Positions 183 to 18,052 of a DNA stretch of 18,052 nt are shown one piece after another. Both the position numbers and the translations under genes were made by a program. The stretch covers positions 1 through 18,052 of the forward strand of contig CAYPCH010000079.1 of the NCBI GenBank assembly GCA_964409165.1, in the 5' to 3' direction. This DNA comes from an uncultured Oscillospiraceae bacterium. GTDB taxonomy: Bacteria; Bacillota; Clostridia; Acetivibrionales; Acetivibrionaceae. The first letter of the stretch is position 1. Each line of letters begins with the position of its first letter. The notes under the pieces were generated by a model. The model was not told the origin of the DNA. It searched no databases and saw nothing but the letters and a program-made list of their open reading frames with translations.

Positions 183-1880
183 ATGTTGAGAGTTAAAGGA
201 AAAGGCGTTAAAATTTTGGCATCTCTTTTAGTGAGTATTTTGACATTCATTAGCTCCCTTTCTGTTATCAATGTATCTGCAATGAATGGCCACTCAAAAT
301 ATTATAACGTGTATTGGCCTTACGTCAATGACCACTGGTCGAGCAAAAGCATGCATTGGTCTTCGTACTACACAAACCAATTTTCTTCCAATCATTACTG
401 GCCTTCTGGAAACTGGAGAACTTCTACCCCTGAAAATCAGGGTATGGACTCAAAAAAACTTCTTGAAATGTTTAAAGCAATTCAGGATGAAAAAACACCT
501 ATACACAGTATTTTAATTATAAAGAACGGATATCTGGTTACAGAAGCTTATTTTAGCCCATATAACGAAAATATCAAACACGGCATTTACTCCTCAACAA
601 AAAGCATAATTTCCTCACTTATAGGTATTGCTATTGATGAAGGTTACATAAAAGGCACTGACCAAAAGGTTCTTGATTTTTTCCCTGATGTTCAGTTTGG
701 CGAAGAAGGCTATCTTGCCGAGTCAATTAAAAAATACCAAGTTAAGGATATGACAATAGAGCATTTATTGACCATGTCTGCGGGACATACTGAAGATTCA
801 TCAAATCCAATTTTTATGAGCAAATATTTCCCTCAGACATTTTTTAGTCTTCACTTTTCTTCAAAGCCCGGAACAAAATTTTTGTATGATAGTGGTGCAA
901 CCCATTTATTATCAGCTATTCTTTCTAAGGCAACAGGAGTGACTACAGAAGCTTATGCTAAAAAGCACTTGTTTGACCCTATGATGATAACCGATTACTC
1001 TTGGGATAAAGACCCTAACGGCACATATCTTGGAGGGTGGGGAGCATATTTAAAGCCCCGAGACATGGCCAAATTCGGATATCTTGCTTTGAAGGAAGGC
1101 AAATGGAATAACAAACAACTTATTCCTAATGAATGGCTTAAAACTGCTACCAGTAAGCATATAGACGGATATTGGGGAAATACAAGAGCAGATGACTACG
1201 GATATCTTTGGTGGATTAATCCGTTTGGCGGTTTCAGAGCTGACGGTTACGGAGGACAGTATATTTTTGTATTACCGGAGCAGGATCTTGTTGCGGTATT
1301 TACGGCCGGTGTTAATTATAGTGAAAAAATGCAACCACTAAATTGTATGACAGATTTCATACTGCCGTCTATAAAATCATCCAGACCATTGAAAGCTGAT
1401 CCTATGACAAATTGGAAATTGCAAGTCTTGATTAAAAGTCTTCAATACCCAAAGCCACAAAAGGTTGCAGTTCTGCCAGAAATCGCAAAACAAATATCAG
1501 GTAAAACTTATATCATGAATTCAAATATTCAAACCATATCCTTTGATTTCAATAGCAGAAATTCCTGCACGTTGAAAATCAAACAGATGGATAGCGAGCA
1601 TAGGTTGAAAGCAGGGCTGGATGATATCTACAGAATATCTGAAGCAACAAAGGTTGGCGGTTTTACTCTATACCCTAATTACACAAAAGTTGCATTAAAG
1701 GGCAATTGGGTCAATGATAATACTTTTGAAATTGACTGGAGTTATTTCGGAGAGCCCTACAGAGGGATTTATAAATTCACATTCAATGATTCCAATGTGT
1801 TGCTGGAGATTAATGAGTACCTAGAGGATTCAAGTTATATGACCTCTTCATATAAGGTTATAAACGGAAAAGCTGAATAG
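183..1880 (+). CDS. Secreted serine hydrolase, beta-lactamase/PBP fold, with a C-terminal extension domain
   Basis: N-terminal signal peptide (KILASLLVSILTFISSLSVINVSA). S-x-x-K motif (YSSTKSI) typical of class C beta-lactamase-family serine hydrolases. The supplied ORF starts at a GTG at 171; the ATG at 183 has a better-placed GAGGTG RBS. Confidence 0.65.
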   Translation: MLRVKGKGVKILASLLVSILTFISSLSVINVSAMNGHSKYYNVYWPYVNDHWSSKSMHWSSYYTNQFSSNHYWPSGNWRTSTPENQGMDSKKLLEMFKAIQDEKTPIHSILIIKNGYLVTEAYFSPYNENIKHGIYSSTKSIISSLIGIAIDEGYIKGTDQKVLDFFPDVQFGEEGYLAESIKKYQVKDMTIEHLLTMSAGHTEDSSNPIFMSKYFPQTFFSLHFSSKPGTKFLYDSGATHLLSAILSKATGVTTEAYAKKHLFDPMMITDYSWDKDPNGTYLGGWGAYLKPRDMAKFGYLALKEGKWNNKQLIPNEWLKTATSKHIDGYWGNTRADDYGYLWWINPFGGFRADGYGGQYIFVLPEQDLVAVFTAGVNYSEKMQPLNCMTDFILPSIKSSRPLKADPMTNWKLQVLIKSLQYPKPQKVAVLPEIAKQISGKTYIMNSNIQTISFDFNSRNSCTLKIKQMDSEHRLKAGLDDIYRISEATKVGGFTLYPNYTKVALKGNWVNDNTFEIDWSYFGEPYRGIYKFTFNDSNVLLEINEYLEDSSYMTSSYKVINGKAE

Positions 1881-1976
1881 ATAAGCCCAAAATATATACA
1901 TTGATCAATATGTTGCGAAACCTCTTTTGCAACATATTGACATATATAAGAATAATATTACGATTAAAAATAGTCC

Positions 1977-2006
1977 TTGACAGGATTATGTTTATTGGGC
2001 TATAAT
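1977..2006 (+). promoter_or_regulatory. Sigma-A-type promoter, TTGACA-18-TATAAT, about 200 nt upstream of the rhodanese gene
   Basis: Perfect -35 hexamer TTGACA (1977-1982) and perfect -10 TATAAT (2001-2006) with an 18-nt spacer on the plus strand. Confidence 0.4.
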
Positions 2007-2212
2007 TATAAATGTAACACAAAATGCCAATGTATATTTCTATTAGTGCAAATTCTTGTAACGTTTTTTTATTTCTACTATTATTTCTCAAACAAAAAAA
2101 TTGTGTTATTTTTATATTTATATTATTTTTATTGCTTAGAGTAAATGTTGTCTGGTATAGATAATGTTTGTTCTAATATATCAATACGGTTAAAAGAAGG
2201 GAAGGTATTAAA

Positions 2213-6840: not shown

Positions 6841-7614
6841 ATGCGGGATATTATACTCAACAAGCTCAGTGCCATTGAAAAGGAAAATAACATCAAAATC
6901 CTCTATGCTGTTGAATCCGGTAGCAGAGGTTGGGGGTTTGCATCTCAAGACAGCGACTACGATGTACGGTTTATATACACTCATCCCACTGACTGGTACC
7001 TTTCCATTGAAGATAAAAAGGATTTTATTGAGGTTCCAATCAATGACTTGTTGGATATAAACGGTTGGGATATCAGAAAGGCTTTTCTACATTATAAAAA
7101 ATCAAATCCTACATTAATGGAATGGCTAAGTTCACCTATAGTGTATATAGAAAACTATAGTGCTGCACAGAGAATGAGAGAATTACTGCCTTTTTACTTC
7201 TCGCAGGTGCCTACAATCTATCACTATCTTCATATAGCAAGAAATAAGTTCGAAGAGGTTATTGCAACAAACCAAGTCAAAATCAAACATTATTTTTATA
7301 TTTTAAGACCCATCCTTGCATGTATGTGGATTGAAAAGAACAATGCGACTCCTCCAATGGAGTTTTGCAAGCTAATGGCTGAACAGCATTTGGATAGTGC
7401 TCTGCTTAATGAAATTAATAAGCTGCTTGAGAAAAAGACTTCTGGTTTGGAAATCGATATCGAACCAAAAAGCTCTATTATTATTGATTTTCTCAAAAAT
7501 AAGATAACTCAATTTGAGCAACATCTCAAGACAGTCAAGAAAGAAAAAACATCCGGTTATGAAGCCTTAAATCTTCTATTTCGTGAAACACTTAAGGAAA
7601 TCTGGGGCGATTAA
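6841..7614 (+). CDS. Polymerase-beta-fold nucleotidyltransferase, PF10127/RlaP-like (RNA-ligase-associated NTase family)
   Basis: Minimal NTase motif ESGSRGWGFASQDSDYDVRF (GS ... DxD), followed by a helical domain (NPTLMEWLSSPIVY). This family is known, from my recollection of the RNA-repair gene-neighbourhood literature, to co-occur with RtcB. Confidence 0.7.
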   Translation: MRDIILNKLSAIEKENNIKILYAVESGSRGWGFASQDSDYDVRFIYTHPTDWYLSIEDKKDFIEVPINDLLDINGWDIRKAFLHYKKSNPTLMEWLSSPIVYIENYSAAQRMRELLPFYFSQVPTIYHYLHIARNKFEEVIATNQVKIKHYFYILRPILACMWIEKNNATPPMEFCKLMAEQHLDSALLNEINKLLEKKTSGLEIDIEPKSSIIIDFLKNKITQFEQHLKTVKKEKTSGYEALNLLFRETLKEIWGD

Positions 7615-7652
7615 GAAAAATGATATATCCCAAAATTTAAAGGAGTTAGTGT

Positions 7653-8654
7653 ATGGGTATGCAGTACATAAAAGACAAGTTGAATTCGGGCAAATACGAG
7701 TTTCTAAGGACAGATCCGCACCTTGGAAGTAATATATTAATCCTTACTTTGGCCGGGTCTATTGCTTATGGAACCAATGTTGATACCAGTGATATTGATG
7801 TCAGGGGCGTTGCGTTAGAAACAAAACAGGATATTATGGGATTATCAAGCTTTGAGCAGTTCGAGGACAGAACCACAGATACAGTAATTTACGGACTCAA
7901 AAAGTTTATTACTCTGTGTCTTAACAGCAACCCAAATGTTCTGGAGATTCTAGGTACAAAACCTGAGCATCTTCTTATTATAACAAAAGAAGGTCAACTT
8001 TTAAGGGATAATGTTGATTTGTTCTTATCCAAAAAAGCAATTCAGAGTTTTGGAAATTATGCAACAGCCCAGCTTAGAAGACTGCAGAATGCTCTTGCAA
8101 GAGATAGTTACCCTCAAGCAGAAAAGGAGCATCATATCCTTAATAGTATATTAGGACAAATGGATCACTTAAAACGGACTTACAAACGCTTTACAGACAG
8201 CGAAATCAGCTTATACATTGATCAATCGGATAAAGAAGAAATGGACACAGAAATATTTATTGATATAAGCATGAAACATTATCCACTAAGAGATCTTAAA
8301 AATATCTATTCAGATATGAATAATATTGTAAAGGATTACTCCAAACTGAATCATCGGAACAGCAAAAAGGATGTTTTTCACCTCAACAAGCATGCCATGC
8401 ATCTGATTAGGCTCTTGGTTACAGGCACAGAAATTCTTGAGGGCAAAGGGATCAATACATACAGAGAAAAGGAACGTGAATTTTTTCTTGATATACGCAA
8501 AGGGAAGTACAGCTATAACGATGTATTTAAGATGGTTGACGAGTACGAGCGCAGGTTCAAATCCGCAGCTGAAAATACATCCCTTCCTGATGAACCGGAT
8601 TATAAACGTGTCGAAGAATTAATGATAGAGATTTATAGCAAAATATTATTATAG
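7653..8654 (+). CDS. Second, divergent polymerase-beta-fold nucleotidyltransferase (paralog of the upstream RlaP-like gene)
   Basis: LTLAGSIAYGTNVDTSDIDVRGV (GS ... DxD NTase core) and a similar downstream helical region (NSNPNVLEILGTKPEHL). 38-nt gap from the upstream gene with its own RBS AAGGAG. Confidence 0.65.
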   Translation: MGMQYIKDKLNSGKYEFLRTDPHLGSNILILTLAGSIAYGTNVDTSDIDVRGVALETKQDIMGLSSFEQFEDRTTDTVIYGLKKFITLCLNSNPNVLEILGTKPEHLLIITKEGQLLRDNVDLFLSKKAIQSFGNYATAQLRRLQNALARDSYPQAEKEHHILNSILGQMDHLKRTYKRFTDSEISLYIDQSDKEEMDTEIFIDISMKHYPLRDLKNIYSDMNNIVKDYSKLNHRNSKKDVFHLNKHAMHLIRLLVTGTEILEGKGINTYREKEREFFLDIRKGKYSYNDVFKMVDEYERRFKSAAENTSLPDEPDYKRVEELMIEIYSKILL

Positions 8655-8860: not shown

Positions 8861-10045
8861 TTAGTCGTCTGAAGCCTTAAAGTTATAAATAGGTTTAATT
8901 ATTTTGTTGATTTCTACAGTGTCGCGGATATTTTCAACAATCTCTTCAATAGGTTTATATGCAAGCGGTGCCTCATCAAGCGTATTCATTGACATTGAGG
9001 TAGTAAATATACCCTCCATTGACTTTTCGAACTCCTCTAATGACAGACTACGTTTTGCTTGTTTTCTGCTCATCAACCGTCCAGCACCATGAGGCGCAGA
9101 TTGATTCCAATCAGAATTACCCTTTCCTGTTGCAATGATACTTCCATCCCTCATGTTTATAGGAATAATAACCACTTCGCCTTTTTTTGCAGATATGGCT
9201 CCTTTTCTCAGAATCATTTCATCAAGATCTATATAATTGTGTATTGTGGTAAAACTATCCACCACGTTAAACTCCATTTCCCGTATAATAACCTCTGCAA
9301 TAGCCTTTCTATTATACTCGGCAAATTTTTGAGCTATATGCATATCATGTATGTAATATTCAAAAGCTTCGCCTTCAACATATGATAATGAATCCTTGAC
9401 TTTTGCTTTCTCTTTTTCGATTTCTTCCTGAATTTCCTTTGTTCTTCCTTGTGACTTTAGCTTCGCAATAATTGAGTCATTGCTTCTCCTTGCAATTTCC
9501 TTTGTTGCTCTTTGCTGGTAACACTCAGCGATTTGTTTGCCCAAATGCCTGCTCCCTGAATGTACAACCAAATAAATATTTCCTTCATCATCTTTATTCA
9601 TCTCAATGAAGTGATTTCCTCCACCTAAGGTTCCAATGCTTAAGGATGCCCTTACCAAATCGACATGTTCTTTGCATTTTAAGCCCTCAAGGTCTATATA
9701 TTCTTTGTATTCATGGACTGTTTCACGTACATCAAATCCACTTGGAACATAGCTTCGTATTGTGCTGTCAAGTTTATTAAAGTCAATCTTTGAATTATCA
9801 AGCATGCTGACAAACATCCCACAGCCAATATCAACACCTACCAGATTGGGAACAATCTTGTCTTTTATAGTCATAGTTGTTCCAATAGTACATCCTGCAC
9901 CGGCATGTGTATCCGGCATAATTCTGATATTACTGTCCTTGACAAATTCCTGATTGCAAAGTTCCTGAATTTGTTCGGCAGCCTTTTCCTCTATATTGTT
10001 TGTGAACACTTTTGCTGTGTTAAATTTGCCTTTGATTTCTATCAT
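8861..10045 (-). CDS. rtcB: RtcB RNA-splicing ligase (3'-phosphate/5'-hydroxyl RNA ligase), short archaeal-like form
   Basis: Diagnostic RtcB motifs: IMPDTHAGAGC, GGGNHFIE, VHSGSRHLG, NQSAPHGAGR. Confidence 0.9.
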   Translation of the reverse strand: MIEIKGKFNTAKVFTNNIEEKAAEQIQELCNQEFVKDSNIRIMPDTHAGAGCTIGTTMTIKDKIVPNLVGVDIGCGMFVSMLDNSKIDFNKLDSTIRSYVPSGFDVRETVHEYKEYIDLEGLKCKEHVDLVRASLSIGTLGGGNHFIEMNKDDEGNIYLVVHSGSRHLGKQIAECYQQRATKEIARRSNDSIIAKLKSQGRTKEIQEEIEKEKAKVKDSLSYVEGEAFEYYIHDMHIAQKFAEYNRKAIAEVIIREMEFNVVDSFTTIHNYIDLDEMILRKGAISAKKGEVVIIPINMRDGSIIATGKGNSDWNQSAPHGAGRLMSRKQAKRSLSLEEFEKSMEGIFTTSMSMNTLDEAPLAYKPIEEIVENIRDTVEINKIIKPIYNFKASDD

Positions 10046-10131: not shown

Positions 10132-11271
10132 CTATTTTTTCAATTTCATTACCCCACATTTTTTGTCACTGCTTTTATTGGAAAGCAGTGTATTCAACTG
10201 TTCTAGCAAGCTACCTCCACCTGTTAGCGATACATTGCCGATCTTCTCACAAATCTTCTCTAAGAACTCAAGCTCTTTTAACCTATAAAGCGTCTGGTTT
10301 TCCTCCATAAGCTTTGCAGTATTTAAAAGACTCCTTGTTGAAGCAACTTCTTCCCTTCTAGTGATAACGTTAGCCTGAGCCTTTTTTTCAGCAATCAGAA
10401 CAGTATTTAAAATTTCCTTTATTTCACCAGGCAATATAATATCCTTAACACCGGCAAACAGGAATTCTACGCCATAACTGTTGCTTTTCTCTTTCAATTT
10501 TTCAAGAACATAGCTTCCAATCTCCTGCTTTTTCAAAAGAAGATCATCAAGCTTTAAGGCACCGACATACTCTCTCAAAATCAACTGCAAAACTATATAA
10601 ATCTGTTCCTCAAAAGATTTTACTTCAACAACCTTTAACGGATCTATTATCCTGTAATGGCACACAAAATTTAAACGTAATGTGATCTTATCCTCTGTCA
10701 TAATTTCCTGTCCGGTCATATCTAACTGTTGTTGCCTTAAATCTACATTCTTTACGGCAACATGCACAGGACTTTTCCAAAAGAAATACCTGCCGGGTTC
10801 CAACGTTTTCTGTATTACATTGTTATAATAAAGGATACCTTTTTCATTATTTCCAACCTCATAATAGCCCACAAAAGCCGCCAGTTTAGGGCTATTGTAA
10901 GTTGAAGCATCTATATCCGACTTTACTTCAGGATTTCTAATATCCACAACTGTAAAATCATGTTTTTTAAGAACATTCCAAAATGCATATTTACCTGATT
11001 TAAGTACATCCACAAGCTTACCATCTTCAAAATGAATGGCAATCTCATTATCCTGGACATCCATCACTGTAAGCTCCTTTGAAAGCTCTCGGTCTCCAAG
11101 GAACAGATTTATATTTTTGCCTGCTACATCAAAGGCTTTATTTACATCGGACACAACAACACTATATTTTATAAACGGATTAAGGTGGTACTTTCCAGGC
11201 TTCAAGCATTTAATATAGTTTCCGTCTTTGAACAATAAACCTCTTTCATCATTTTTGATATTTACCTTCAT
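10132..11271 (-). CDS. SPFH/band-7 (slipin-family) protein, soluble form with three N-terminal beta-repeat copies
   Basis: C-terminal half has the SPFH core (LKVVEVKSFEEQIYIVLQLILREYVGALKLDDLL ... coiled-coil EKKAQANVITRREEVA). The N-terminus has three copies of an (E)RGLLFKDGxYxKxLKPGKYxxNP-type unit. No predicted TM helix. The supplied ORF starts at a GTG at 11331; the ATG at 11271 (MKVNIK) with AAGGGA upstream is the more likely start. Confidence 0.7.
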   Translation of the reverse strand: MKVNIKNDERGLLFKDGNYIKCLKPGKYHLNPFIKYSVVVSDVNKAFDVAGKNINLFLGDRELSKELTVMDVQDNEIAIHFEDGKLVDVLKSGKYAFWNVLKKHDFTVVDIRNPEVKSDIDASTYNSPKLAAFVGYYEVGNNEKGILYYNNVIQKTLEPGRYFFWKSPVHVAVKNVDLRQQQLDMTGQEIMTEDKITLRLNFVCHYRIIDPLKVVEVKSFEEQIYIVLQLILREYVGALKLDDLLLKKQEIGSYVLEKLKEKSNSYGVEFLFAGVKDIILPGEIKEILNTVLIAEKKAQANVITRREEVASTRSLLNTAKLMEENQTLYRLKELEFLEKICEKIGNVSLTGGGSLLEQLNTLLSNKSSDKKCGVMKLKK

Positions 11272-11561
11272 TTTAATCCATCCCTTCGATAAACTAATAA
11301 TTTTTGCAACCTTTTTCAAGAATCCTCCCACAACATCAGCGGAGTGCTGCTTGAGGATATTTACTCACAGATCGTTATACATGGCTGCCTCTAAAGTTAC
11401 AGGCATTGCCAAGCATTGCCTGATTACTTTTTATACAGGCTCATGTATAAGGATAGGCTTGTTATATCCGGTATCCGCACACTTCAGAGCCTAAGTTCCG
11501 GTGCTTTTGCAAAAGTTCTGCAAAAGCCTGAGGATTCTCTCCAAAGATTCCTGTGAATTAC

Positions 11562-11703
11562 CTCGATTAAAAGTCGAGTGCTAAACCATAGCATTCAGAT
11601 CCCTAATCTGATGGGGATTTGAACCCCTTTTTCATTGCCTTATGCTCTGCCTCTGAGCTAATCACTTTGCAGTAATGGAGGAATCGAACCTCCGACACTA
11701 AGG
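11562..11703 (-). ncRNA. Candidate structured ncRNA: two tandem, circularly permuted tRNA-like modules (Y-RNA-like/YrlA-type tRNA mimic) with a tRNA-Lys(UUU) anticodon stem-loop
   Basis: Minus strand reads: CCTTA-GTGTC-[GGAGG TTCGATT CCTCC]-[ATTACT GCAA AGTGAT]-TA-[GCTC AGAGGCA GAGC]-A-TAAGG (TAAGG pairs with the 5' CCTTA), then [GGGG TTCAAAT CCCC]-[TCAGAT TAGGG ATCTGA]-AT-[GCTA TGGTT TAGC]-A-[CTCGA CTTTTAA TCGAG]. Both T-loops match the TTCRAWT consensus. The D-arm is tRNA-Lys-like. Lies in a 545-bp gap between a terminator and the SPFH-rtcB genes. Confidence 0.4.
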
Positions 11704-11833
11704 TTTTTTGCTCCAACTTTCCAGGCATACCTTTTATAATAAAAATAAAAGGCACCGCGAGACCATTTAGAAATCTCCGCATAAGGAACAGGAACAATAT
11801 TATTATACAGGTATAAAATACTAATTGACAGAC

Positions 11834-11870
11834 AAAAAGTTTGCAACCTTTGTCACGTTGCAAACTTTTT
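11834..11870. terminator. Bidirectional intrinsic terminator (14-bp stem AAAAAGTTTGCAAC/GTTGCAAACTTTTT) immediately downstream of the phosphatase-like gene
   Basis: Perfect inverted repeat with 9-nt loop, flanked by a T-run on the plus strand (TTTTTATATAAT) and TTTTTG on the minus strand. Followed on the minus strand by a TGTATAAT -10-like element (11802-11809). Confidence 0.5.
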
Positions 11871-11876
11871 ATATAA

Positions 11877-12208
11877 TTAAAACATGTCTATGTATTCAGA
11901 AACGCGAGATATTAATATTTCAATCAATTCCTCATCCATAAAAGAATAGTCATCTGATATATCCAGAATGATTACTTTTTTATCCTTGAGGATATCTCCA
12001 AATTTTTCTTGAATTCTTCTCAAGTGTTTTTTCTCCATTACAAAGATTATGTCTGCCCAGCCAATATGACCGCCTGTCACTTTAATTCTAGCATTACTTT
12101 CTGTTCCAGCTGATCTTACTTCGTGACCATTAGTACCATTAAAAATCTTCTCAGCCGTAAGACTTCTCCATTTATTTCTACTGCATAAAAATAGTACCTT
12201 TATGTTAA

Positions 12209-12212
<4 letters not shown>
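11877..12212 (-). CDS. Small LMW-PTP-fold phosphatase (COG4551-type predicted protein tyrosine phosphatase / ArsC-like P-loop)
   Basis: N-terminal P-loop VLFLCSRNKWRS (C-X5-R-S) as in low-molecular-weight PTPs and arsenate reductases. Only 111 aa. Stop codon overlaps the start region of the WYL gene (ATGA-type coupling at 12209-12212). Confidence 0.65.
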
Positions 12213-14794: not shown

Positions 14795-15177
14795 CTATCC
14801 AACCTCTATGTATTTGGGATCTATAAAATCGGCAAGCCACACTTTTTCATTTCCTTTATAAAACGTAATTCCCTCATTCCAAGCATCCATAGAATTTATA
14901 ATAAGTAAAGCAGGATGGTCATCTCTCCTTTTACCAACTTGTAGAGCCATATCTGTGTCAACAGCCAAGTGAACATACTGCCTTCCTTTAGGAATCAATC
15001 CCTTTTCCTTAATCATTGATAAGAATCGCCTTGTTGTTCCATGAAATAAAACTTCAGGTGGCTGCAATGATTCCTTTATTATCCTCTGAGGAATTGAATG
15101 CCCGTACAAAGCTCTTATTCCCATGGTGCATGCCTCAATGCAAAAGACATAGCTTTACTTAATCTTGTATAATCCAT
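14795..15177 (-). pseudogene. kptA: Disrupted tpt1/kptA (RNA 2'-phosphotransferase): N-terminal 20 codons in one frame, C-terminal NAD-binding lobe (109 aa) in another, with about 50 codons missing between them
   Basis: C-terminal ORF has Tpt1 motifs (GIRALYGHS, LFHGTTRRF, QYVHLAV, VGKRRDDHPALLI, KVWLADFIDPKYI). Just upstream in the +1 frame: MDYTRLSKAMSFALRHAPWE-stop (Tpt1 N-terminal LSKxLSxxLRHxPE motif, RBS AGGAAGG). The roughly 55 residues that normally separate LRHxPE from IRAxQGHS are absent. Confidence 0.6.
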
Positions 15178-15506: not shown

Positions 15507-16010
15507 CTATGTAGCTTCAGTATATTCGCTATATGTATCCTCATCAAAGCAAACCATCAAAACTTTCTCAATGTTAGAATTCGTATCAAGAAACCCCTTT
15601 ATCTCATTAATTGCTATCACTGCTGCCCTTTCTACTGGAAATCTGTATGCTCCTGTACTTATTGATGGGAAAGCTATAGTTTTTATACCATACCTGGCCG
15701 CTAGTTCCAAAGAATTTCTATAACAATCAGCCAATAGTCCATCTTCTCCCCTGTTTCCTCCCTGCCACACAGGACCCACAGTATGGATGACCCACTTAGC
15801 GGGAAGTCTATATCCTTTAGTTATTTTTGCCTGTCCGGTTTTGCATCCATGTAGCTTCATGCATTCCATAACAAGTTTAGGTCCGGCTGCTCTATGAATA
15901 GCACCATCAACACCTCCCCCGCCAAGTAGTGAACTGTTTGCTGCGTTAACTATAGCATCAATAACTTGTTTTGTTATATCTCCCTTAATAACATCTAGTC
16001 TATTTATCAT
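15507..16010 (-). CDS. Macro domain protein (MacroD/YmdB-type ADP-ribose-1''-phosphatase / O-acetyl-ADP-ribose deacetylase)
   Basis: Canonical macro motifs: [28 protein letters not shown], and the downstream G-rich loop. Probable start at the second ATG (MINRLD, 16010), which is preceded by GGGAGG. Confidence 0.85.
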
Positions 16011-16264
16011 AATATCGCCTCCCAATATTTAACATCAGCAACCTTATCTCTAACATCTCTATTTCGTGAATTAATCATTTGTTTCAACTGCTTTTACATC
16101 TGCAGATAATGCGTAAGTATTGTTTCAGAGATTAAGTGAATATAGTTTTCCAAAGATATATTCTCTTTCAGTAATTATTTTCTTATCCTATTTTAGGTTG
16201 TATCTAATCTTCCTCTACTAAACCTTGCCTGTTTTTCAATATCTCTTTTACTTAAGCCCCTATC

Positions 16265-17476
16265 CTATTCTGTTTCATTATCCAAGACATCTTGCTCAAA
16301 AATCTTTGTATTAACAGCTTCTTGCTCCAATTTGCAATTATTCTCAAGCATATAGTCAATCACTTCACTAAAGTTGCTATCCCTTAGTCTTAGTAGCCTT
16401 TTACGATCATTTTCTGTAAGCTTTTTAGTATATTGGATATTCTCTTTTAGTGTGGCAGTATCCATTTTATAAGGTCGGAACTCCACCCCTGTTTGACCTT
16501 TCAAATGTTCAAATATATAAAACCCACCGGCATCTATGTCACCAAAATGATAAAAAGGCGTACCAGGATTTTGATGGTGTATTCTTTTGATAAATTCACG
16601 CCTAATATTATTATGATAACCGCCAAGATAAATTGCAAACATACCTTTATCACTAAAAGTATGAAAACTTGTTAAATTCTCGATAGTTATTACAGCCGTT
16701 CCTTTTACATCAATCGTTCCCACATCTGGTAATATAATAGAAGAAATTGCAATATCACCACCAAGTTTTGTCAAATCTATTATTTGGTCATTTAGTGTAA
16801 TACTGCCCGCACCCTTAAAATTTACGTATGTAGGATTTTTAATGATGTTTAAATTGCCTAGAACCTGATCTTTATCAGGAAAATCCCCATATTCGTATAA
16901 TAGGTTTATTACCTTGGAAGATAAAGCTTCAAATATCTTAGAATCTCTAAAAACTCTTACGGAAAAATCTCTGACAAAAATTTCAATTTCGACTTTCAAT
17001 AGCTCATCAACAGCTATCAAAATATTCTCCAGCTCTGACAAATCATTATTAAAGAATTGCACAGGTTTGTTTAATGCAATCCGTTCACATTGAGTTTCGC
17101 AATATTTCATTAAGATGGGATTTCTCAATTTATATTTTTCCATCAAATGAAGAATAGCCGAATTTGTATCCTTTTTAGGCGACCTTCCAACATAATTATA
17201 TACTTGTTCCAAGCTATTCAGATTTAAAACAATATCTTTATAAACTTTTGCCGAATTTGCTTGTGCAAATATGAATTGCTTTCTTATTAAGATGTCTATA
17301 GCCTCGTTTATCAAGTTAAACGCTTCATAGTTTGAATGATCAGCATACTGAGGAAACAAGGAAGAAACTTTGACCATGAACCTTTGATTTACCTTGTTAT
17401 CCCCTATAAAACTTTTGCTTCTTTCAAACTTGTCCAACAATTCATTAATTATCTGACTCTCAAATCTGCTCCTCAT
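16265..17476 (-). CDS. jetD: JetD/MksG-like protein (DUF3322 N-terminal + DUF2220 Toprim/TopoVI-A-like C-terminal domain) of a Wadjet-type SMC system
   Basis: C-terminal Toprim signature: acidic E in ITIENLTSF and DxD in HFGDIDAGGFYIF. About 400 aa. Start overlaps the stop of the upstream SMC-like ATPase (ATGA). Confidence 0.6.
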   Translation of the reverse strand: MRSRFESQIINELLDKFERSKSFIGDNKVNQRFMVKVSSLFPQYADHSNYEAFNLINEAIDILIRKQFIFAQANSAKVYKDIVLNLNSLEQVYNYVGRSPKKDTNSAILHLMEKYKLRNPILMKYCETQCERIALNKPVQFFNNDLSELENILIAVDELLKVEIEIFVRDFSVRVFRDSKIFEALSSKVINLLYEYGDFPDKDQVLGNLNIIKNPTYVNFKGAGSITLNDQIIDLTKLGGDIAISSIILPDVGTIDVKGTAVITIENLTSFHTFSDKGMFAIYLGGYHNNIRREFIKRIHHQNPGTPFYHFGDIDAGGFYIFEHLKGQTGVEFRPYKMDTATLKENIQYTKKLTENDRKRLLRLRDSNFSEVIDYMLENNCKLEQEAVNTKIFEQDVLDNETE

Positions 17477-18052
17477 AGGTCATACTCCTCAATAATGCTT
17501 GTCGTACCCTCCCTCATTGCCATTAGAATCGTGTCTACCTTTTCGCCAATTATCTCAATTTTTGAAGGTGGTGTGGCAAGTATAATCTGGAAATTCTGAC
17601 TGTTTAAAAAATCCATCATTGAGCTGATACGGTTATCGTCCATCTTGTCAAAAGCTTCGTCAAACATAATAATTCTGATTGTATCACCAAGCTTATAGAG
17701 CTGGACAAAGGATGCTGCTATAGCTACATAATATGGTGTTTGGGTTTCTCCGCCACTTTTTTCACCATATATTTTCGAAAATCGCTGTACTATCCCATCT
17801 TTCTTCTCCACAATAATATCATAATCAAGATATCTTCTGTAATCTGTATATTCTAAAAGCACCTTCTCTCCCTTGTCATCATAAGCAGTTAACTTGGCAA
17901 ATAGGTCTTCCATCTCTTCCTTATATTCATCATCAAAGGCTCTGGACCATAAATTAAATCCTGCTTCATTGTTTTTTGACATAATCATTTGATAGATGCT
18001 TTCTTTTTTCTTATTGTGAGTCAACTCAAACTTGTAGCTGTCGTCACCATAG
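17473..18052 (-). CDS. jetC: C-terminal end of a JetC-like SMC/ABC-type ATPase (partial; the gene continues beyond the window end)
   Basis: ABC signature-like GEKSGGETQ, then Walker B/D-loop IIMFDEAFDKMD. The frame stays open to the last base of the window, so the apparent start at 18024 is a TTG and an artefact of the window edge. Confidence 0.5.
   Translation of the reverse strand, partial: YGDDSYKFELTHNKKKESIYQMIMSKNNEAGFNLWSRAFDDEYKEEMEDLFAKLTAYDDKGEKVLLEYTDYRRYLDYDIIVEKKDGIVQRFSKIYGEKSGGETQTPYYVAIAASFVQLYKLGDTIRIIMFDEAFDKMDDNRISSMMDFLNSQNFQIILATPPSKIEIIGEKVDTILMAMREGTTSIIEEYDL

Follow-up and report, generated by a model that had tools for sequence, protein, structure and literature searches.

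The 18,052-nt stretch analyzed here, referred to as the window (contig CAYPCH010000079.1 of assembly GCA_964409165.1, from an uncultured Oscillospiraceae bacterium), carries a long non-coding region on its minus strand, directly upstream of genes for a slipin, a stomatin-family SPFH protein, and for the RNA ligase RtcB. Two tandem modules with tRNA-like arms in a permuted order lie in this region at 11562-11703, and the question is what kind of RNA they belong to. An earlier note, made from the sequence alone, regarded them as a Y-RNA-like unit of about 140 nt with a tRNA-Lys anticodon arm. As described below, the modules lie instead inside a structured RNA of about 490 nt (approximately 11305-11795, with predicted ends), which is conserved together with slipin and would form the 5′ leader of the slipin-rtcB transcript. 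All elements of the RNA are on the minus strand.

The slipin gene (10132-11271, minus strand) was identified by its Pfam Band_7 match, and the rtcB gene downstream of it in the same operon (8861-10045, minus strand) by Pfam RtcB (6.8e-65) and NCBIfam. The N-terminus MKVxIKNDERG is conserved among slipins and is found in the window as MKVNIKNDERG starting at ATG 11271. The true start is therefore this codon and not GTG 11331, to which a gap of 545 bp had been measured in the earlier note; the non-coding gap is 605 nt.

All the elements listed previously for the two modules are present in the sequence. Module 1 (11638-11703) is closed by a stem of CCUUA (11703-11699) and UAAGG (11642-11638), supported by sequence and covariation. 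Between these strands are a V loop of 5 nt, GUGUC (11698-11694), a T arm, GGAGG-UUCGAUU-CCUCC (11693-11677), a loop-closed acceptor, AUUACU-GCAA-AGUGAU (11676-11661), the dinucleotide UA, a D arm, GCUC-AGAGGCA-GAGC (11658-11644), and a single A. When Rfam was searched at permissive thresholds, YrlA was the sole credible match in 11250-11950: it covered 11640-11701 and model positions 23-85 of 114, which are the tRNA-like part of that RNA, with 33.3 bits and E=2.3e-5. This score is under the gathering score of 69 bits, and a gathering-mode Rfam scan gave no match over the whole window.

Covariation was analyzed with relatives from a sample of 80 species-level genome loci encoding slipin relatives and 80 metagenome loci, one of which (L132) is 99% identical to the window. 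For module 1 a plain, sequence-only MAFFT alignment of 19 loci and 500 shuffles were used. Pairing was retained in 97.6% of cells, and in 14 of the 20 pairs both partners had changed. Covariation scored 0.350, compared with 0.144 in shuffled alignments, none of which reached the observed value, and slid controls gave at most 0.102. All four helices are kept, three of them with changes on both sides, while the D stem is invariant. The closing stem is found as CCUUA/UAAGG, CUGAA/UUCAG, CCGUG/CACGG, CCGAA/UUCGG and GUUGU/ACAAC. Together with the YrlA match, these data confirm the YrlA-type permuted topology of module 1.

Close relatives have GCAA or GUAA as the acceptor loop of module 1, and GCUA, GAUA or a longer loop is found elsewhere. 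Of the two features that the earlier note took as signs of a selected fold, the CCUUA/UAAGG closure covaries and the GNRA loop is not conserved. At locus L087 (2057-2142, plus strand) this loop contains an extra hairpin insertion of about 17 nt (GUCAGGUAACUGAC), so that it tolerates large insertions, as expected if it is directed away from a functional surface. Module 1 was found in about 23 of the 113 anchor-positive loci, in Clostridia-like lineages, Thermoactinomycetaceae and some distant lineages; it is a clade-specific and optional part of the RNA family.

Module 2 (11562-11627) is a permuted tRNA-like domain with a full anticodon-like arm and is near-universal among the members of the family. 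It consists of a T arm, GGGG-UUCAAAU-CCCC (11627-11613), a closed acceptor, UCAGAU-UAGGG-AUCUGA (11611-11595), a D arm, GCUA-UGGUU-UAGC (11592-11580), and an anticodon-like arm, CUCGA-CUUUUAA-UCGAG (11578-11562), with the loop CUUUUAA at 11573-11567. A covariance model built from it (R1) gave 70.9 bits in the window and matched upstream of slipin in nearly all loci. Among 83 distinct sequences the stems pair in 93% of cells, and both partners have changed in 13 of 15 pairs. Covariation scored 0.372; shuffled alignments gave 0.127 (none of 500 reached the observed value) and slid partners at most 0.083. This alignment was fitted to the covariance model and therefore leans towards structure. Swaps are also apparent in the raw sequences: AUCGC/GCGAU, UCAGAU/AUCUGA, CUUGC/GCAAG, and CUCGA/UCGAG against CUCCA/UGGAG. 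Overall, most pairs of the stems proposed in the earlier note covary among relatives, in 19 sequences for module 1 and 83 for module 2, and its view of the modules as a selected fold rather than debris is borne out. A single-sequence fold of 11540-11720, in which a long outer helix consumes the D and anticodon arms of module 2, was rejected because these two arms covary independently.

The loop of the anticodon-like arm was considered separately, since the earlier note had assigned it to tRNA-Lys. It is 7 nt long in 66 of the 83 distinct members, and these loops retain a tRNA-like frame: C32 in 59, U33 in 58, U (40) or G (24) at position 34, A37 in 61 and A38 in 60. The triplets themselves are of 16 kinds, UUU (11 loops) and UUC (10) among them, and the UUU loop is not shared by the window's close relatives, which have CGGUCAC, CUGUUAA and UUGAAAA. 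Within the window's clade the pairwise difference of the triplet is 0.40, compared with 0.46-0.53 for other free loops, 0.20 for the loop of hairpin P1, 0.08-0.09 for the T loops and 0.02 for the GGAUACC loop (P1 and GGAUACC are described below). Hypervariability of the triplet as a sign of an arms race was consequently rejected: in this clade it drifts like the other free loops. The stem remains CUCGA/UCGAG while the triplet changes, indicating that the RNA does not copy particular tRNAs. About 10 of 74 loci lack the arm or have something else in its place. The triplet shows no sign of purifying selection or of conspicuous diversifying selection, and the conserved information is that of the tRNA elbow and of a 3′ domain without tRNA likeness, not that of a Lys anticodon. 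The tRNA-Lys identity is a trait of the window and not of the family.

Conserved blocks outside 11562-11703 comprise a 5′ hairpin, a CAGUGCC...GGUAU.CUG hairpin, a GAAUCC box, GCAC.G...GGCU.UG, an invariant GGAUACCG, CU.AAGC.....UCCGC, GGAUUC and AAAGGU; the T arm of module 2 is also conserved. Two hairpins are located 5′ to the modules. P1 (11757-11780; GC-G-GAGAU / GUCUC-GC) has a conserved, constrained loop, and P2 (11723-11756; GGUGCCUUUUAU / AUAAAAGGUA..CU) is a long hairpin with a conserved GGUAU bulge region. Both were supported by covariation and RNAalifold: in a MAFFT alignment of 88 loci 84.5% of their pairs are kept, with a covariation score of 0.371 against 0.212 shuffled.

The 3′ domain is closed by a helix in two parts. 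P5a is formed by AAUCUUU (11549-11543) and AAAGGUU (11314-11308), and was recovered by duplex energy, RNAalifold and the minimum free energy (MFE) fold; P5b, formed by GAAUCCUC (11537-11530) and GAGGAUUC (11327-11320), was recovered by covariation, RNAalifold and MFE. Since the register of P5a varies, it was tested by duplex energy. Strands from the same locus gave on average -10.5 kcal/mol and strands from different loci -6.7 kcal/mol, the own partner being better in 100 of 111 loci. Hairpin P6 (11503-11527; GCUUUUGCA-GAACUU-UGCAAAAGC) varies in sequence between loci and is supported by MFE and by compensatory pairs in RNAalifold. It is followed by the 5′ strands of P7 (CCGGAAC, 11501-11495), P8 (GGC, 11491-11489) and P9 (AGUGUGC, 11483-11477), the loop GGAUACC (11476-11470) and the 5′ strand of P10 (GGAUAU, 11469-11464). 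Beyond P10 is the distal part of the domain (11361-11463), which in the alignments varies in sequence and length. The returning strands are those of P10 (AUAUCC, 11360-11355), the loop UCAA (11354-11351), P9 (GCAGCACU, 11350-11343), P8 (GCU, 11340-11338) and P7 (GUUGUGG, 11334-11328).

Sequence-only block alignments of 111 distinct loci were used for this domain, with 300 shuffles. P5b and P7-P10 were 77% paired, compared with 63% after shuffling, and their covariation score was 0.466, compared with 0.233 (maximum 0.256 in 300) when shuffled and at most 0.232 when slid. The 3′ domain therefore consists of six covarying long-range helices around a GGAUACC/UCAA internal loop. Of all single-stranded parts of the RNA, GGAUACC, which faces UCAA, is under the strongest constraint and is nearly invariant in more than 110 loci; no assignment of this internal loop to a known RNA motif was obtained. 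P1, P2 and P5-P10 had no Rfam 15 family in E-value scans of 11250-11950 and of the RNA of L033, a Paenibacillus locus.

Several other pairings were tried and rejected. GGAGGAUUC (11328-11320) was considered as a slipin Shine-Dalgarno sequence sequestered by GAAUCC; the true ATG 11271 lies 50 nt further downstream, so that GGAGGAUUC is the 3′ strand of P5b and not a ribosome-binding site. Pairing of UCCGC (in the region of 11342-11338) with GCGGAG of the P1 5′ strand or with GCGGA of the GGAUACC block gave a covariation score of 0.16 and conflicts with P9 and P8. Pairing of the 5′ leader with a box upstream of P5b, suggested by the MFE fold, was better for the own locus in only 42 of 87 cases.

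The order of the RNA is thus P1, P2, module 1, module 2 and the 3′ domain (P5-P10), with at least 16 helices, and the two tRNA-like modules (142 nt) make up about a third of it. The window RNA folds with an MFE of -169.7 kcal/mol (z = -6.1; 0 of 100 shuffles), and unguided RNAalifold of 16 full-length sequences recovered all helices, with 95 pairs, 46 of them compensatory. Across the family the RNA is 380-490 nt long and its tRNA-like part occupies 65-140 nt; in the window the modules are 290-430 nt upstream of the slipin ATG.

A consensus scan found a promoter-like site, CTGTCA-18 nt-TATAAT, at 11802-11831 (minus strand; -35 element 11831-11826, -10 element 11807-11802), and 13 relatives have TATACT at the aligned position of the -10 box. 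Next to it, after the gene for a protein resembling low-molecular-weight phosphatases (LMWPc-like), is a strong hairpin (11832-11872, minus strand; -20 kcal/mol, z = -5.3) of 16 bp, flanked by A/U, the 3′ arm of which stops one base before the -35 element. This hairpin is likely a terminator that parts the upstream operon from the RNA promoter, and is possibly bidirectional. The -10 box and the upstream hairpin point to a dedicated promoter with a start near 11795. At the other end the last helix stops at 11308 and the RNA would end 33 nt before the slipin ATG 11271 (25-35 nt across loci); no terminator-like site was found between the RNA end and this ATG, which suggests co-transcription with slipin-rtcB.

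An nhmmer search with the single intergenic sequence matched 40 genome loci, all in slipin orientation. An iterated profile found the RNA upstream of slipin and in its orientation in 78 of the 80 genome loci, over approximately 380-470 profile positions, and the modules were matched in 56 of the 80 metagenome loci, where many contigs are incomplete. The architecture is retained at 46-47% slipin identity (L138, L152). The window's RtcB and RlaP proteins, used in tblastn, detected RtcB near 22 and RlaP near 15 of 80 slipin loci. The association with slipin and RtcB put forward in the earlier note thus stands for slipin (78 of 80 genomes) and only in part for RtcB. Hen1-Pnkp is the other bacterial RNA-repair system, and in Paenibacillus ehimensis the RNA-slipin pair lies directly downstream of it, without RtcB; in Shimazuella kribbensis the pair stands alone, with no RNA-repair gene within 7 kb (loci L161, 880-4740 (+), and L162). 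Since RtcB is often absent near slipin, the RNA and slipin are the constant unit: the pair is conserved across Bacillota, whereas its neighbors vary between RtcB, RlaP, Pnkp/Hen1 and none.

Two slipin paralogs about 5.5 kb apart are present on the Paenibacillus contig NZ_BTCK01000007.1 (loci L034 and L039), and the module 2 model matched twice there (L034 881-948 and 3066-3133, with 64.8 and 71.2 bits); the 71.2-bit match precedes the slipin of L034, a stretch with two anchor-positive sites of which this is one. A blastn search of phage and plasmid collections with the RNA gave no match. Viral contigs scanned with a pattern (T arm, gap, GGATACCG) yielded more than 120 matches; none of them fitted the RNA profile or carried slipin, and they were accordingly taken as chance or tRNA matches.

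Sequence matches in the PDB (stomatin, QmcA, HflK) place the slipin in the stomatin family. As judged by eye its N-terminus has no hydrophobic segment, and the protein is probably soluble. The AlphaFold2 model (mean pLDDT 79) predicts three beta-hairpin repeats, the SPFH domain and a helix of 65 residues. Foldseek matched this model to ring- and cage-forming SPFH proteins (stomatin, HflK/C, QmcA) and to the major vault protein (MVP), which gave the longest alignments, of more than 410 columns.

These observations are best explained if the RNA is the RNA subunit of a slipin ribonucleoprotein, by analogy with the Y RNA (YrlA) that accompanies Ro60 in rsr-rtcB operons; we put the probability of this at about 0.5. 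Transcription would begin at a promoter of the RNA's own, and the RNA would make up the 5′ portion of the slipin(-rtcB) transcript. The 3′ domain and P1 would hold it on an oligomeric, cage-forming, MVP-like slipin. The tRNA-shaped modules would present the elbow of a tRNA (T loop/D loop) together, in most cases, with an anticodon-like loop, whose triplet itself carries no conserved information. In this way the modules could recruit or position tRNA-handling enzymes (RtcB, RlaP, end-healing enzymes) or damaged tRNA substrates.

Several points weigh against such a ribonucleoprotein. The D stem and the anticodon-like arm are degenerate or lost in some lineages, so that there is no universal tRNA-like surface beyond the T arm and the closed acceptor. 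The likeness of slipin to MVP rests on a model of medium confidence (pLDDT 79, TM 0.33-0.45). The promoter, the RNA ends and the particle itself are inferred. Finally, the RNA is on the same strand as slipin and directly upstream of it, 25-35 nt before the start, with no terminator between, which fits a cis-acting leader equally well.

The locus raises the question of a third, bacterial relative of the Ro60-Y RNA and MVP-vault RNA pairings, and of how SPFH scaffolds and tRNA mimicry contribute to RNA repair. The constant partner here is an SPFH protein and not the ligase, and the mimic is a domain of a large, widely conserved structured RNA, not a small tRNA-like gene. With its mutable invariant loop, about 16 defined helices and cultivable carriers (Ruminiclostridium, Paenibacillus, Shimazuella), this RNA is a concrete object for study.

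A tRNA mimic next to a Band-7/SPFH gene in RNA-repair loci is an already published prediction. In the summary given by Wang et al. 2018 (10.1101/312249), the work of Burroughs and Aravind (2016) is credited with predicting an Rsr-less tRNA-like non-coding RNA next to RtcB, the band-7-associated or b7a-tRNA, as the cognate RNA of Band-7, with noting that YrlA occasionally adjoins Band-7 genes, and with proposing the Band-7 protein and the tRNA-like RNA as a cofactor pair for RNA ligases; the predictions are described there as not validated. The slipin RNA likewise has tRNA-like modules upstream of a Band-7/SPFH slipin with RtcB as the next gene, and as far as the summary allows, the two very likely represent the same association. 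Compared with b7a-tRNA as summarized there, the slipin RNA is permuted, has a loop-closed acceptor, can have a YrlA-type module in tandem, and continues into a 3′ domain without tRNA likeness. The permuted topology, the YrlA-type tandem, the 5′ hairpins, the 3′ domain and the constancy of slipin were not found in Rfam 15 or in searchable papers, among which b7a-tRNA is represented by the citing summary and not by the original description. Bacterial Y RNAs and the predicted Band-7 tRNA-like RNA have been the only hints of dedicated tRNA mimics in RNA repair. At locus L152 a canonical tRNA-Lys(UUU) (1970-2044, plus strand; Rfam 66 bits and ARAGORN), followed by a GC-rich hairpin, lies between a distant slipin and an RtcB-like ORF, and the same locus has a two-module RNA upstream of slipin. 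This gene may be what the literature describes as a b7a-tRNA "strongly resembling an authentic tRNA".

The alternative that survives best, though still unlikely, is that the RNA is a structured 5′ untranslated region controlling transcription, translation or stability of slipin-rtcB in cis, with no separate life in a particle; one route would be that the tRNA mimics bind a tRNA-handling protein or a damaged-tRNA signal. Besides the position of the RNA, its putative own promoter with a terminator hairpin upstream and the adjacent WYL regulators are consistent with this. Leaders of comparable logic are known: the E. coli thrS operator mimics tRNA-Thr and T-box leaders recognize tRNA, so that both, like the slipin RNA, are structured 5′ leaders using tRNA shape or recognition. 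The slipin RNA differs from them in having no Rfam T-box match, in its much larger size, and in that the real Shine-Dalgarno sequence and start codon are outside every conserved helix. No mutually exclusive pairing was supported, the leader-box pairing being own-better in 42 of 87 loci, and no antiterminator/terminator alternative was found in the RNA. About 16 helices in 380-490 nt also far exceed the needs of known translational operators. The two roles, leader and ribonucleoprotein subunit, can coexist.

A bolder form of the ribonucleoprotein model is a bacterial vault-like particle, in which an MVP-like slipin ring or cage would enclose or carry the 380-490-nt RNA while the modules dock damaged tRNAs or repair enzymes; this we regard as speculative and rather improbable. 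Vaults combine MVP, which has an SPFH-like shoulder, with vault RNA, and TEP1 carries a TROVE domain. The parallel lies in an SPFH-type, cage-forming protein paired with a dedicated non-coding RNA and in the alignment of the slipin model with MVP. The slipin RNA has no sequence or Rfam similarity to vault RNAs, and with the slipin cage and RNA packaging hypothetical the comparison is an analogy only. If true, it would mean a dedicated compartment for RNA repair and quality control, a prokaryotic counterpart of the MVP-vault RNA pair, and a new class of large structured RNA in Bacillota.

It is somewhat less probable again that the anticodon-like arm acts as bait, decoy or sensor for anticodon nucleases, so that a ribotoxin cuts the arm and is titrated by the RNA, or that cleavage and resealing by RtcB report damage. 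tRNA-Lys(UUU) is the target of PrrC, and tRNAs with GUU, GUA, UUC and UCU anticodons are cut by known ribotoxins. The window loop is that of tRNA-Lys(UUU), these other triplets occur in relatives, and 66 of the 83 members have the frame C32-U33-NNN-A37-A38 with U or G at 34. Genes for RtcB, RlaP and phosphatase lie close by, and the ends of cleaved tRNAs are where RlaP acts (PMC12776372). Hughes et al. (PMC7790460) suggested YrlA as a competitive inhibitor of an anticodon nuclease; the same work counts against the bait model in that Salmonella YrlA was not cleaved by an SOS-induced nuclease. Comparative data give a PrrC/tRNA-Lys decoy no support. The triplet is not conserved and, in the window's clade, varies no faster than free loops (0.40 against 0.46-0.53), about 10 of 74 loci have lost or exchanged the arm, a constant stem under a changing triplet does not copy particular tRNAs, and most of the conserved RNA, that is the 3′ domain, would be left unexplained. 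As the triplet is not conserved, the PrrC/tRNA-Lys version proposed in the earlier note is set aside as unsupported.

That the RNA is a genuine Y RNA of the YrlA family, working with an Rsr/Ro60 protein encoded elsewhere in the genome, is very improbable. YrlA consists of a Ro60-binding helix with GNCGAAN0-1G and a tRNA-like module of V loop, T arm, acceptor stem-loop and D arm (PMC4201824, Chen et al. 2014). Module 1 aligns to the latter part (E=2.3e-5 in the window; 35.5 bits in L138), and it resembles YrlA in the order of V loop, T arm, loop-closed acceptor, D arm and a helix replacing the anticodon stem, in its D- and T-arm sequences, in the RtcB neighborhood and in a presumed role as RNA partner of a scaffold protein; YrlA is also sometimes found beside Band-7 genes, as Burroughs and Aravind are cited (10.1101/312249). 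The score, however, is half of what the gathering threshold requires, the window has no match to model positions 1-22 and 86-114, which form the Ro-binding helix, and GNCGAAN0-1G is absent from 11300-11800 (minus strand). YrlA is about 110 nt long and closed by its own ends; in the slipin RNA the ends of the module are held by a 5-bp stem within about 490 nt. The partner is an SPFH slipin, no TROVE/Rsr match was found by Pfam among the ORFs of the 18-kb window, in agreement with the lack of rsr stated previously, most members lack module 1, and in L033, which has the single-module form, the RNA had no Rfam match at E≤1. The proposal of a Y-RNA-like unit of about 140 nt was thus not upheld.

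An origin of the modules as mere debris of tRNA genes (from a former integration site or a tandem pair in decay), to which a weak plain-tRNA match could point (RF00005, 22.2 bits, E=0.05, below the 29-bit threshold and a hybrid of the module 1 D arm and the module 2 T arm), can practically be dismissed, as compensatory changes maintain loop-closed acceptors and the closing stem and not a canonical acceptor, the element with its flanking domains is conserved in 78 species-level genomes, and no integrase or att context is found beside it in the window. ARAGORN found no tRNA gene in the window, as had been anticipated.

As for the origin of the fold, the covariance model of the permuted module also scores junctions in a tandem array of 17 tRNA genes (L074, 1477-3098, plus strand), where each tRNA's T arm and acceptor 3′ strand run up to the acceptor 5′ strand, D arm and anticodon arm of its downstream neighbor. 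This is a caveat for searches with the model; it makes a tandem-tRNA origin plausible and suggests a way in which the permuted module could have arisen from tandem tRNA genes. Circularly permuted tRNA genes are known in Cyanidioschyzon merolae, and permuted tmRNA is made of two pieces. As in these, the half with the T arm and the acceptor 3′ strand precedes the half with the acceptor 5′ strand, D arm and anticodon arm, and the RtcB-type ligase encoded nearby might in principle join ends. Differences are the acceptor of 5-6 bp, compared with 7 bp in a permuted gene that yields a functional tRNA, with a short closing loop, the lack of a BHB motif and of a CCA context, the often degenerate D stem and the continuity of the module with large flanking domains. 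In the sequence no sign was seen that the modules mature into a decoding tRNA.

The Pfam scan, which covered the ORFs of the 18-kb window, identified RtcB, Band_7 (slipin), an LMWPc-like protein, two WYL/WCX proteins, a Tpt1 fragment, Macro, JetD, JetC and two RlaP proteins. PADLOC matched the WYL regulators alone, with no defence-system assignment for slipin, RtcB or RlaP. The RlaP (PF10127) nucleotidyltransferase paralogs are in tandem at 6841-8654 (plus strand), in convergent orientation to rtcB. The first matches the family over its full length (7.9e-90); the second, with 333 aa, is longer and has diverged. Before cleaved tRNAs are ligated, RlaP extends their 3′ ends with nucleotides (PMC12776372). 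An embedded SPFH gene is also present in the rtc locus of P. aeruginosa (PMC13086221).

The LMWPc-like gene (11877-12212, minus strand) encodes 111 aa matching only the first 40 or so residues of the low-molecular-weight phosphatase family. The protein is about 90% identical in L002, L003 and L009, indicating a real gene, and it may be the end-healing phosphatase of the operon. An ORF at 14795-15124 (minus strand) corresponds to a C-terminal fragment of the RNA 2′-phosphotransferase Tpt1/KptA (109 aa, aligned to positions 75-176 of 177 in PF01885); the N-terminal part was not found in the 200 nt upstream, so that the gene is probably truncated. At the distant slipin locus L160 a TD-1 RNA (RF03155, 69 bits, above threshold; 575-685, minus strand), unrelated to the slipin RNA, lies on the opposite strand about 1.4 kb upstream of the module match at 2038-2101. 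In the window an intact Macro-domain gene (O-acetyl-ADP-ribose deacetylase-like) is located at 15507-16025, and the window edge (16265-18024, minus strand) encodes the Wadjet protein JetD, with its Toprim-like C-terminal domain, and a JetC/SbcC Walker-B fragment; the RNA-repair operon thus adjoins a defence system.

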